A DNA stretch of 24,775 nucleotides from a virus (lineage: Duplodnaviria; Heunggongvirae; Uroviricota; Caudoviricetes), in the IMG/VR virus record IMGVR_UViG_2541047936_000008, positions 1-24,775 of that record; one strand, given 5' to 3'. The position numbers were made by a program. Below are positions 18,001 to 21,000 of this stretch, piece after piece. Every line of letters begins with the position of its first letter. Position 1 is the first letter of the stretch.

Positions 18001-21000
18001 CTTAACAAACTCTGCCCTTCGCATACCTACGTAATTTTTAAATATCCGGAGTAATCCATGCATCGTATAGACACGAAAACCGCGCAGAAGGATAAGTTCG
18101 GCGCGGGTAAGAACGGTTTTACCCGTGGTAACCCCCAGACCGGCACACCTGCCACCGATCTGGATGATGACTACTTTGACATGTTGCAGGAAGAACTTTG
18201 TGGCGTGGTGGAGGCCTCCGGTGCCAGCCTGGAGAAGGGGCGAAACGACCAGTTGCTTACCGCGCTTCGTGCTCTGCTGTTAAGCCGCAAGAATCCGTTT
18301 GGTGATATCAAATCGGATGGCACGGTGAAAACGGCTCTCGAAAACCTTGGTTTGGGAGAAGGTGCTCCAGCTATTGGCGTTCCGTTCTTCTGGCCCTCCG
18401 CGGCAATGCCAAATACTGTAATCGACAGCTGGTCCAGTATGGTGTTTTTGAAGTTCAACGGGGCGAAATTTTCTGCCTCTGATTACCCTGTGCTGGCAAA
18501 AGTGTTTCCTTCGCTGGTATTACCTGAAGCCCGCGGTGATTTCATTCGTATCTGGGATGACGGGCGAGGGGCGGACAGTGGGCGAGCATTATTAAGCTGG
18601 CAGGCAGCAACATCTTTATCGCAATTTGGCGGTAATTATCCAGAAGGGTCCGGCCATGCGATTGCTGATTACGATGGAATATCAGCACACCAGCCAGGTT
18701 TCTCTCGATTTCAGTACACCAGTAACTCAGTAGGAGATGGTGTTAATTTTGTTGCTGTCAGACCGCGAAATATTGCATTTAACTTTCTGGTGAGGGCTAA
18801 ATGATGACCCCAATTTTTGATGAAAATGGACTGGCTACAGTGCCGGGCGATATGCGTTGTTTTTATTATGATGCAGTAACGTATGAATATACGGGCTGGT
18901 CTGATGAATATATTAATACTGGTGTAAGTATGCCCGCCTGTTCCACTGGTATTGACCCGGGCGAAAACATTCCGGGAAAAGTGGCAGTATTTACGGGTAA
19001 GGGATGGAGCCATGAAGAAGACCATCGCAATGAGACTGTTTACTCAACAGAAAATGGTGCAGCTGTTACAGTGGATTATATCGGTGCCATCAAAGACGGT
19101 TATGTCACGCTTTCACCGTTAACGCCATACGATAAATGGGATGGTGAGAAATGGGTGACGGATACCGAGGCACAGCATAGCGCCGCAGTAGAAGCGGCAG
19201 AAGCACAGCGCCAGTCGCTGATTGATGCTGCAATGGCTTCCATCAGTCTGATTCAACTGAAATTACAGGCTGGGCGGAAACTGACGCAGCCAGAAAACAC
19301 CCGACTTAACGCTGTGCTGGATTATATTGACGCGGTGACGGCAACAGATACCAGCACCGCGCCGGATGTCATCTGGCCTGAACTGCCGGAGGCGTAGGCC
19401 ATTCAATATCTGGCGCACCGGAAGTATCGACCAGTTCCAGTGCGTCCAGATAATCCAGCCACAAATTATATTGCACCAGTTCCTCACCTTTCAGGCGACC
19501 AATCGCCGCTTTACCAGGCCATTGCTTACTGTTTATGTATTCGTTGACCTGATTAATCAATTGCTGCTTTTTCAGTTCGGCTGCGGCAATTTGTTCCTCA
19601 TGAGTTGGCGGTGGAATATCAATCCATGCAGGCATTCCGTCGATGACACCTCTGTATTTTCCTTCTGGTGCTTCCTTCATAAATTCGGCAGCAACAGTGT
19701 CGTCAATTTCGATTCCATCATCGGGCCATTCGCCGGATTCCTGATAAGCGATTTTAAGCTCCACAGGGAAAAACGCATTTTTATCGGCACTGAAAATATA
19801 TTTCTGCATTTCTACCGTCCTATCGAAATATAACTGAATCTGTATTGCTGTGAGATATCACTGGTTGCCACACGCCACGCTGAATTACTGATATGTTCAA
19901 AATTTACAGACAAAACCTGCGGGGCAGGATTCGACGGGTCTGACTGAACGGCATCAGACATAACACTGACTGAAACCATCGGCTGATTAGGGAATGGTAT
20001 AGGGAAGTGTCCACTGATAAAGCGGGTCGTGTTTCCTGAAAAAGTGCCAAACTGAACAATATATCCACCTGGTAGCCTGAACCATCCCGAACCAGAAGCG
20101 AATGCTCCCATATCCGGTATCTGATTATCTCCTGTGCCCACATCCCTTTTCGCCGCTTCTCCCAAACCAACGTTTAAGAAAATGCAGAGATTATGGCTAA
20201 CTGGCATCATCCCCGGTTTTTACTCAGGGGAATGCTCATGCTTATTGGCTATGTCCGCGTATCAACAAATGACCAGAATACGGAATTGCAGCGTAATGCG
20301 CTGGAGTGTGCAGGATGTGAGCTGATTTTTGAAGATAAGATCAGCGGCACTAAGTCCGACCGACCGGGACTGAAAAAACTGCTCAGAACATTATCAGCAG
20401 GTGACACTCTGGTAGTCTGGAAACTGGACCGACTGGGGCGCAGTATGCGGCATCTTGTCGTGCTGGTGGAGGAGTTGCGCGAACGTGGCGTTAATTTTCG
20501 CAGCCTGACGGATGCTATTGATACCAGCACACCAATGGGGCGCTTTTTCTTTCATGTGATGGGTGCCCTGGCTGAAATGGAGCGAGAGCTTATTGTCGAA
20601 CGTACTAGGGCGGGCTTTGCCGCAGCACGACAAGAAGGGAGGAATGGTGGGCGAAAGCCAAAGCTGACAGTAGAACAATGGGAGCAGGCTGGCAGGTTGA
20701 TTGAATCGGGAATATATCAGCAGCAAGTCGCACTGATTTATGATCTGGGTATTTCAACGGTGTATAAAAAATTCCCTGTAGCAAGTAAACCATAACCTTA
20801 CGCCACATTGATGATCGCGGATTATGCACTATTTTTAGGTCTTGTAACCCGAGGTGGGAGTTGTTTGGTTATATGTTCAAGTGATTTTTTGCCCAAGATA
20901 GTTCTTTGGACAAAACTTTCTATAGCTTCTAGCATTTGTTCGAACTCACTTTTATTCGGGCTCCAACTGCGATGTGCGGCGGCGTTTCCTGCATCAATTA

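Follow-up and report, generated by a model that had tools for sequence, protein, structure and literature searches.

An intact Pin-type tail-fibre inversion module, sibling of the e14 P segment, in a recently crippled prophage

Results

The viral DNA analysed here, a stretch of 24,775 nucleotides that we call the window, very likely carries at positions 18058-20795 a two-site inversion module of the Hin/Gin/Cin/Pin type, a sibling of the e14 P segment that has stayed intact in a recently crippled prophage (Table 1). The system is already known: it is the classical Pin/Gin/Cin invertible tail-fibre switch, built on the sites of the e14 P segment. The switch is structurally intact and very probably still flips. 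An earlier note on this DNA had described a complete Gin/Pin-type switch, and the components of one are indeed all present, namely an invertase, two sites with matching cores, two tip-chaperone cassettes, and a homologue of the recombinational enhancer.

Table 1. Coordinates of the inversion module and of the sheath remnant in the window
Feature	Position	Strand	Remarks
Sheath gene, 3′ 45% (context)	9105-9774	+	Fused at ~9105-9108 to a PerC-like regulator gene; deletion junction
Constant fibre N-terminus, Sc	18058-18348	+	97 codons, outside the invertible segment; ORF 18058-18804
Left crossover site (pix-type)	18335-18360		12-bp half-sites flanking core TT at 18347-18348
Invertible segment	18349-20168		1,820 bp core to core
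Variable tip Sv, Collar-type, now fused to Sc	18349-18804	+	Weak Pfam Collar match; PHROG tail fibre / tail collar
Chaperone U, cognate of Sv	18801-19397	+	Pfam Caudo_TAP, E=1.6e-27; 62.5% identical to e14 TfaE
Alternative chaperone U′	19369-19809	-	Pfam Caudo_TAP, E=9.3e-34; 56% identical to e14 TfaP
Alternative tip Sv′, gp53-like C-terminal domain, unjoined to Sc now	19812-20168	-	Pfam Gp53-like_C, E=2.5e-9
Right crossover site	20157-20182		Core AA at 20169-20170, + strand
Short leader with in-frame ATG-ATG (MMPVSHNLCIFLNV...), outside the segment	20169-20210	-	Opens the 132-aa ORF 19812-20210
Serine DNA invertase, 185 aa, Pin/Cin/Gin/Hin family	20238-20795	+	Pfam Resolvase, E=1.8e-51; HTH_7, E=2.2e-11
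Candidate recombinational enhancer, invertase codons 7-30	20256-20327	+	Positional homologue of the annotated enhancer of P1 cin, nt +19 to +90

The left crossover site reads CTCTCGAAAACC-TT-GGTTTGGGAGAA and the right one, in reverse complement, TTTTCTTAAACG-TT-GGTTTGGGAGAA. The 14-bp perfect block, the 12-bp half-sites, and the 2-bp core given in the earlier note are what the sequence reads: 14 bp (TTGGTTTGGGAGAA) are identical in both sites, and the inverted repeat reaches 20 nt at 95% identity (18342-18361 and 20156-20175). By hand count, the symmetry of the half-sites is 9/12 on the left and 8/12 on the right. Read from its outer side inwards, each site has the core dinucleotide TT; inversion requires such a match. 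A search of all 24,775 bases, on both strands, for the consensus TTCTCNNAAACCNNGGTTTNNGAGAA with up to three mismatches returned exactly two matches, the two inverted 26-bp sites already proposed, against a chance expectation of 0.01; none of 100 shuffled sequences gave two or more. No third site appeared in the window even at up to five mismatches, which rules out a multi-site system like Min of plasmid p15B. Min is a multiple-inversion, shufflon-like system of the same invertase family that also acts on tail-fibre cassettes; it has six crossover sites, whereas the window has exactly two. Comparison with known invertase sites, a check that had been suggested for these repeats, showed that the left site matches exactly the e14 site of E. 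coli K-12 within ycfK/stfP and that the right site is one base apart from its e14 counterpart. The left site includes the repeat TTGGTTTGGGAGAAGG, at which the inversion of e14 occurs (PMC12529663).

The invertase is 84% identical to PinE, 79% to Cin, and 76% to Gin, and it has Ser9 along with every residue shared without exception by Pin, Cin, Gin, and two other invertases. Residues unique to enhancer-dependent invertases are, in Hin, K47, K/R48, K/R51, Q151, R154, and L155 (PMC3798978); the window protein, whose numbering runs one below that of Hin, has K46, K47, R50, Q150, R153, and L154 at these Fis/enhancer-contact positions. The candidate enhancer at the 5′ end of the gene is 78% identical to those of P1 and Mu and 87.5% identical to that of e14. 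Fis sites are expected to lie ~48 bp apart. Two Fis-core-like motifs of the form G-N13-C (20259-20273 and 20308-20322) are found in the candidate enhancer and span 64 bp, the proximal one lying ~97 bp from the right core; the enhancer of hin measures 65 bp and lies ~100 bp from hixL (PMC3798978). Among 69 distinct invertase genes, the synonymous-codon entropy is 0.44 at codons 7-30 and 0.56 elsewhere (p=0.19), and at third codon positions the enhancer matches P1, Mu, and e14 no better than the remainder of the gene does. Codons 9-13 (TCAACAAATGACCA), which lie in the first Fis-like motif, show nearly no synonymous change, with none at codons 9-12 and two variants at codon 13. Conservation of the enhancer could be explained by coding constraint, and we infer its function here from homology. 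A simple scan, whose five sites do not exceed the 5.9 expected from shuffles, detected no consensus promoter for the invertase.

The left site lies inside the tail-fibre gene, where it occupies codons 93-101 and encodes ...ALENLGLGE, and the minus strand of the right site encodes LNVGLGE; both translations agree with those of the earlier note. In DNA, Sc is 95-99% identical to its counterpart in e14 stfP/ycfK and in many prophage fibres, and homology to relatives stops at 18361-18363. Sv shares 40% identity over 177 aa with e14 StfE, a protein with a clear Collar domain. The gene for U′ is convergent with that for U, with a 29-bp overlap, and all four ORFs, for two tips and two chaperones, are intact and belong to tail-fibre families. 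After an in silico flip, the fibre gene is an uninterrupted ORF of 215 aa. The junction created in this way is contiguous in 17 complete E. coli genomes at 97-98.7% identity (19 at a coverage of at least 80%), where the gene is annotated as gp53-like. The proposal that inversion would swap the tip and its chaperone in frame thus gains a clean flipped ORF, one that other genomes carry as an actual gene.

Both orientations of the same cassettes occur in related E. coli prophages: among related loci, which belong to prophages 94-99% identical and not to one clone, 24 have the orientation of the window and 29 are flipped, and alignment end points fall within the two sites in 116/385. E. coli T309.Ta3 has the same two cassettes in flipped orientation, with breakpoints at 18342-18361 and 20156-20175, and a viral contig (L009) whose right flank is 99.85% identical also has the segment flipped. 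The ~1.8-kb unit is 99.1-99.6% identical in P2-like, P1-like, E217/PhiTE-like, and other myovirus prophages, one P1-like element (L098) having it at 99.2% identity, and its homology in these prophages ends at the crossover sites. The near identity of a unit bounded by the sites in unrelated prophages shows its frequent exchange between unrelated phages.

The prophage that carries the module is integrated in dusA, with the integrase adjoining dusA and a duplicate of the dusA 5′ end at 1068-1174. It is of an e14-like type with an HK97-type head and a Mu-type contractile tail, and it is ~16 kb shorter than its intact relatives. The lysis, terminase, portal, capsid, and connector genes are missing together with the 5′ 55% of the sheath gene, whereas the T309.Ta3 relative has the full gene set. 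Homology to the full-length sheath of 498 aa begins at position 9105 of the window, ~nt 828 of 1497, and the remnant comprises positions 105-168 of the Phage_sheath_1 profile plus the C-terminal domain. The truncation of the sheath and the defectiveness of the prophage, both put forward before, are therefore borne out by the gene content, and the switch does not lie in a virion-building phage such as Mu or P1. A PrtN-family activator is present, but we rejected a tailocin because the sheath lacks more than half of its gene. The deletion junction is absent among 5,426 complete E. coli genomes, and no record of the chimeric PerC-sheath ORF was found. Two records alone contain the exact truncated sheath product: GCA_000461215.1, with 100% identity to window positions 8801-24775, and one read-set assembly; both of these records carry the orientation of the window. 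Reads of run SRR958739, from this strain, assemble into the contig found in GCA_000461215.1. Since no other strain is seen to carry the deletion, the switch is a recently orphaned but intact copy and not an old decayed relic.

One element of the earlier note did not hold. The alternative fibre C-terminus had been called startless, but an in-frame ATG-ATG at 20205-20210 opens a minus-strand ORF of 132 aa (19812-20210) that is called as a gene in the source assembly, and the ATG-ATG and the open frame are preserved in 72/76 distinct upstream regions of relatives. The leader and the beginning of e14 stfE are homologues, with 52% identity over 25 aa. With its start codon beyond the right site and a gp53-like tip at its end, the ORF has the architecture of the e14 protein StfE2; its Gp53-like_C domain covers residues 45-132, compared with 47-125 in StfE2.

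Discussion

The features described above fit the mechanism established for the serine invertase family. The 185-aa recombinase would bind the two 26-bp sites as dimers, and Fis bound to the enhancer in the first 90 nt of the invertase gene would promote a synaptic tetramer. Both sites would then be cut at the central TT/AA, one pair of subunits would rotate by 180 degrees, and religation would leave the 1.82-kb segment flipped. Because the left site falls in codon 97 of the fibre gene, the 97 constant codons can join either tip in frame. In the present state, the Collar-type tip and then chaperone U would follow the constant part; in the flipped state, the gp53-like tip and then chaperone U′ would do so. 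For an intact phage, this means alternating receptor specificity. Since the host prophage is without head, packaging, and lysis genes, the switch cannot alter the host range of a virion made from this prophage alone.

The closest known system is the P segment of e14 with its invertase PinE. Besides the crossover sites, the two share the gene order (stfP/ycfK, tfaP, tfaE, stfE, and pinE in e14), an Sc that is 95% identical in DNA, and closely related invertases. In each of them, the Collar-type tip goes with a TfaE-like chaperone and the gp53-like tip with a TfaP-like one, a homologous leader with a start codon lies beyond the right site, and the host prophage is defective. The differences lie in the surroundings and in the tips: the window prophage is integrated in dusA and e14 in icd, a DUF4145 gene takes the place of e14 mcrA, and the tips have diverged to 40% identity in one case and to a common Pfam family alone in the other. 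The window also retains the entire baseplate, tape-measure, and tube module. We considered whether the element is e14 itself and rejected this on its integration in dusA and its DUF4145 gene in place of mcrA, which make it a sibling element. With respect to the K-12 reference, the state of the window is the 'inverted' one (StfP2/StfE2-like). Inversion of the e14 segment in culture was seen by whole-genome sequencing and confirmed by PCR by Goldberg et al. (PMC4272514), and was quantified by qPCR by Kirigo et al. (PMC12529663).

Similarities to the more distant members of the family are mostly in the layout. The G segment of Mu with Gin and the C segment of P1 with Cin have the same order of Sc, Sv-U, U′-Sv′, and invertase, and their 26-bp sites likewise consist of two 12-bp half-sites around a 2-bp core. 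Their enhancer lies near the 5′ end of the invertase gene, where the window has its candidate, and the product of that gene is 76-79% identical to that of the window. The flanks of the sites differ, the Mu core is TC, and Mu and P1, both of them complete and viable phages, have far longer fibres. The Hin system of Salmonella shares the recombinase family, the Fis-contact residues, and the geometry seen in the candidate enhancer, but its H segment flips a promoter for flagellin genes, whereas the window flips coding cassettes.

The earlier note had left room for the fibre genes being retained for another purpose, and a precedent for this has been published for e14 (PMC12529663). Kirigo et al. 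(2025) reported that inversion of e14 creates StfE2, which consists of the stfE leader and the gp53-like tip of StfP, and that StfE2 lowers the adsorption of T2 and protects against several phages (PMC12529663). PinQ, the recombinase of this PinQ/StfE2 inhibition, is absent from the window. It is conceivable, if unlikely, that the segment of the window was exapted in a similar way, to toggle a small host-expressed protein made of the outside leader and the facing tip that masks outer-membrane receptors and blocks the adsorption of other phages. In the present state, the product would be a 132-aa protein composed of the leader and the gp53-like tip. The ORF at 19812-20210 is indeed built like StfE2, with a homologous leader and Gp53-like_C, and its start and frame are kept in nearly all distinct relatives. 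It could be reached by transcription: the genes to its right, for a DUF4145 protein, DinI, and the integrase, are all on its strand, and as no terminator-like site is predicted on that strand between them and the ORF, read-through is conceivable. Several points speak against such a function. BLASTP found no similarity between the tip of the ORF and the e14 StfP tip, the shared Pfam family being the only link. A simple promoter scan detected no promoter-like site just upstream of the ORF, and in our reading of the sequence the stretch GGGG stands at a distance from the ATG that is poor for a ribosome-binding site. The ATGATG shares bases with the conserved leader at the 5′ end of the invertase gene, and constraint on the opposite strand may account for its conservation. 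PADLOC returned no match for the fibre, the 132-aa ORF, the DUF4145 protein, or the ORFs with no assigned function, and much of the evidence for the e14 precedent comes from plasmid overexpression. That the switch persists in a virion-less prophage by toggling a StfE2-like receptor-masking protein, encoded at 19812-20210 and now 'on', seems to us quite improbable on this analysis. If true, the 2025 e14/PinQ defence idea would come to cover a second prophage lineage, independent of the first and with another tip specificity.

We consider it very unlikely that the module is a working host-range switch in trans, serving phages that reside in the same host or superinfect it, whether through recombination at the conserved sites or through a supply of fibres and chaperones. 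The near identity of the module across P2-like, P1-like, and E217/PhiTE-like prophages would suit such a role, as would the cross-reactivity of the Din invertases: PinE inverts the G segment of Mu and the H segment of Salmonella, and PinQ and PinR invert e14 (Kirigo et al., PMC12529663). That identity, however, reflects evolutionary exchange and not a function selected in this strain; moreover, Sc is specific to an e14-like baseplate, and the window holds no second prophage of this genome.

A frozen relic, whose parts look intact but which no longer flips here, for instance because the invertase is not expressed, is similarly unlikely. The single orientation of both deletion-bearing records and the outcome of the promoter scan for the invertase are what such a relic would lead one to expect, but consensus assemblies show the majority orientation only. 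In addition, oppositely oriented prophages have an invertase gene with 100% identity to this one, and e14, which is equally defective, keeps flipping in culture (PMC12529663, PMC4272514). Finally, a chance inverted repeat beside an unrelated recombinase, for which nothing but the shortness of the repeat speaks, is already refuted by the two matches found where 0.01 were expected, by the identity or near identity of the sites to e14 sites used in experiments, and by the inversion breakpoints of relatives, which lie exactly at the sites.

The intact inversion module that we favour carries little weight as a discovery; its modest value is that of a clean natural example of such a module in a prophage recently stripped of its virion genes. 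On a broader scale, the ~1.8-kb cassette unit circulates, more than 99% identical, among at least four tail architectures that are unrelated to one another. As this strain carries the ORF arrangement claimed to give e14 its phage defence, the generality of that claim could be tested in it.

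Results

The earlier note had proposed a Gin/Pin-type invertible tail-fibre switch in this DNA, a proposal borne out by the crossover sites, the invertase, the two tip and chaperone cassettes and the occurrence of both orientations in relatives. Reading of the sequence, a repeat finder and a pattern search all place two inverted sites at the positions that had been named (table). The repeat finder ranked 18342-18361 / 20156-20175 (20 nt, 95% complementary) first among the inverted repeats of the region, and the generic invertase-site pattern TTCTCNNAAACCNNGGTTTNNGAGAA, with three mismatches allowed, matched the whole window exactly twice, at the two sites, compared with a mean of 0.01 matches in shuffled sequence and two matches in 0/100 shuffles. 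No further invertase site appeared in the window even at five mismatches, which makes this a simple two-site system. As claimed, the left site lies within the fibre gene, at codons 93-101 of ORF 18058-18804; the right site encodes ...FLNVGLGE on the minus strand, after which the frame is open to 19812.

Features of the switch and of the deletion junction, in window coordinates
Feature	Coordinates	Strand	Length	Description
Left crossover site	18335-18360			CTCTCGAAAACC TT GGTTTGGGAGAA
Right crossover site	20157-20182			Reverse complement: TTTTCTTAAACG TT GGTTTGGGAGAA
Variable tip Sv	18349-18804			Collar-type, related to e14 StfE tip; 40% identity to e14 StfE
Chaperone U	18801-19397			Caudo_TAP; 62.5% identical to TfaE
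Chaperone U′	19369-19809	opposite		Caudo_TAP; 56% identical to TfaP
Tip Sv′	19812-20168	opposite		Gp53-like_C
Serine recombinase	20238-20795		185 aa	Resolvase and HTH_7 domains
Candidate recombinational enhancer	20256-20327			Positional homologue of P1 cin enhancer
Chimeric ORF	8915-9295		126 aa	Made by deletion junction
Truncated sheath gene	9105-9774			3′ 45%

Four ORFs lie between the two sites. In-silico inversion of the segment at the core dinucleotides gave an uninterrupted 215-aa fibre with the gp53-like domain at its end, and this clean ORF, together with the same junction in E. coli genomes, upholds the claim that inversion swaps the fibre tip in frame. The chaperone genes converge, with an overlap of 29 bp (19369-19397); an 18-nt, 89% inverted repeat (19316-19333 / 19442-19459) brackets this overlap and probably reflects the C-terminal LDYID/LDYLD motif common to both chaperones.

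Both orientations are found among relatives. The flipped-state junction, which joins the constant N-terminal fibre part to Sv′, aligns as one collinear piece with 17 complete E. coli genomes at 97-98.7% identity and is present at a coverage of at least 80% in 19; its genes are annotated there as gp53-like protein, and several carriers are prophages at the same dusA site. The related prophage of E. coli strain T309.Ta3 matches a fully flipped 2.9-kb construct end to end, and in direct comparison with the window its flanks align on the plus strand and its interior on the minus strand, with overlaps at 18342-18361 and 20156-20175. Viral contig L009 has a flipped segment and a right flank 99.85% identical to that of the window (3 differences/2,020 nt), which includes an identical invertase gene. 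Among the scorable fetched relatives, 24 are oriented as the window and 29 oppositely, and of 385 interior alignment end points, 116 are located within one or other of the two short sites. The variable parts start exactly after the left site; the homology of strains elppa4 and F719 to the window ends at 18362/18363 and picks up again later.

Three fetched loci, L092, L094 (11437-14094) and L096 (6823-9480), encode a truncated invertase of only 52 aa directly followed by cytolethal distending toxin genes in the order CDtoxinA / Exo_endo_phos / CDtoxinA; inversion there would depend on another invertase acting in trans, and the switch would otherwise be frozen. The dusA prophages L003 (7952-8600) and L004 (8280-8928) have the same left site, an invertase 52% identical to that of the window and a right site with a different outer half (ATATTTGAAAGG-TT-GGTTTGGGAGAA), so two diverged invertase lineages serve the same fibre gene.

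The window invertase shares 84% identity with PinE of e14, 79% with Cin of P1 and 76% with Gin of Mu, and keeps the catalytic Ser9 and all columns invariant among the compared invertases. Hin residues K47, K/R48, K/R51, Q151, R154 and L155 are uniquely conserved in enhancer-dependent invertases (McLean et al., PMC3798978); the window protein has K46, K47, R50, Q150, R153 and L154 at those positions (numbering is Hin minus one). The earlier note had suggested a search for a Fis-dependent enhancer in the 5′ end of the invertase gene. In the P1 record, nt +19 to +90 of cin are annotated as the Cin enhancer; the counterpart in the window shares 78% identity with P1 and Mu and 87.5% with e14. It contains two Fis-like G-N13-C motifs (20259-20273 and 20308-20322) with a joint span of 64 bp, the nearer centred ~97 bp from the right core, an arrangement similar to that of hin, whose 65-bp enhancer lies ~100 bp from hixL and carries Fis sites at both ends (PMC3798978). 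Constraint beyond that of coding was not seen: synonymous-site entropy did not differ significantly between enhancer codons and others (p=0.19), and third-position identity was no higher in this stretch than elsewhere. We therefore infer the enhancer by homology, with support from the conserved Fis-contact residues of the invertase.

Alignment to known sites showed that the left site of e14, a cryptic E. coli K-12 prophage, lies inside ycfK/stfP and is identical to the left site of the window, whereas the right sites differ by one base; P1 cixL and Mu gix have the AAACC-NN-GGTTT centre in common and diverge in their flanks. The e14 inversion has been placed at TTGGTTTGGGAGAAGG / CCTTCTCCCAAACCAA (Kirigo et al. 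2025, PMC12529663), a sequence equal to window block 18347-18362, and both e14 orientations coexist in clonal K-12 cultures (Goldberg et al. 2014, PMC4272514). It follows that these very sites are experimentally validated substrates of Pin-type invertases. The e14 prophage is even more decayed than that of the window, yet the sites work there.

The alternative tip had been described as startless, which proved incorrect: an ATG-ATG in frame with it lies at 20205-20210 on the minus strand, 28 nt beyond the right site, and starts a 132-aa ORF that consists of MMPVSHNLCIFLNVGLGE and the gp53-like tip and that a gene caller also reported in the source assembly. Of 76 distinct relatives, 72 have this start and an open frame; e14 is among them, and stfE begins there at this start. 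StfE2, the e14 inversion product published as a T2 adsorption block, measured 125 aa when rebuilt from the K-12 sequence, with Gp53-like_C at 47-125, the same build as its paper states (Kirigo et al. 2025, PMC12529663). The window ORF shares this build, with BLASTP similarity in the leader only. The ATGATG also belongs to the conserved invertase-gene leader on the other strand. A promoter scan found no promoter-like site near the predicted ORF; the right-hand neighbour genes share its strand, and no terminator is predicted between them and the ORF, so read-through transcription into it is conceivable.

Tail-fibre cassette exchange between unrelated phages is classical. Exact-protein look-up found chaperone U among widely differing tail types: in an e14-like prophage (L090; at icd, with full sheath and mcrA), in P2-like prophages (L091, L097), in a P1-like element (L098) and in E217/PhiTE-like myovirus prophages (L093, L095, L096). 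DNA of L091, L097, L098 (at 9542-11375) and L096 matches at 99.1-99.6% from site to site (18342 to 20170/20175); the 97% match of L093 continues across the sites into both flanks. The exchanged unit is visibly the invertible segment itself, which behaves as a horizontally exchanged unit.

The window spans yjbM (DUF2713, 1-708) to dusA (23362-24399), which adjoins a tyrosine integrase gene. At the far left end of the ~22-kb prophage (about 1.1-23.3 kb), a second copy of the dusA 5′ end (1068-1174; 81% identity) is the displaced original and marks attL, as expected for dusA-targeting integrases. The early region (S24 repressor, CII-like, Ash, replication-initiator-like and PerC-like genes) directly joins the sheath gene, confirmed as truncated, at ~9105; tube, chaperone, tape measure, DNA-circulation protein, Mu-type baseplate, fibre switch, DUF4145, DinI and integrase follow. 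At the deletion junction (~9105-9108), a PerC/YfdN-like regulator gene runs into the sheath gene at its nt ~828. The related T309.Ta3 prophage (~38 kb) has, from early genes to full sheath, lysis genes, terminase, portal, protease, capsid, connectors and tail terminator. The junction occurs in 0/5,426 complete E. coli genomes, and the exact truncated sheath product only in one read-set assembly and in GCA_000461215.1, which has a contig with 100% identity to window 8801-24775; both show the orientation of the window. This rarity indicates a private and recent deletion, which accounts for every part of the switch still being intact.

Three other genes were noted. A PrtN-family 'pyocin activator' (2273-2554, minus strand, 93 aa, Pfam E=1.7e-22) in the early-left region, perhaps a late-gene activator, is also present in the intact T309.Ta3 relative. 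Just downstream of the invertase, 20822-21517 (minus strand) encodes a 231-aa DUF4145 protein (PHROG 1305, 'DNA binding protein') with no PADLOC match; the same slot, apparently one for cargo, holds mcrA in e14 and L090, cdtABC in L092/L094/L096 and nothing in L003/L004. The tail module has a small variable insertion at 12363-13069 (ORF 12517-12966, 149 aa, PHROG 8976), which separates the tape-measure gene from the DNA-circulation gene; it has no match in T309.Ta3, and GZ2408P has a hypothetical gene at the same position.

Discussion

The system described here is already known, and the earlier finding was correct and its interpretation sound. With its integration in dusA and its different cargo, the switch is a sibling of the e14 P segment, not e14 itself; as one more example of a well-known kind of system, it has low value as a discovery. 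In e14 terms, the window is in the 'inverted' state, with the constant part joined to a StfE-like tip and the leader to a gp53-like tip. An StfE2-like adsorption block by the predicted leader and gp53-like tip protein is possible, although unsupported here. Most likely, a very recent deletion deprived the switch of a virion, and the switch is intact and probably still flips.
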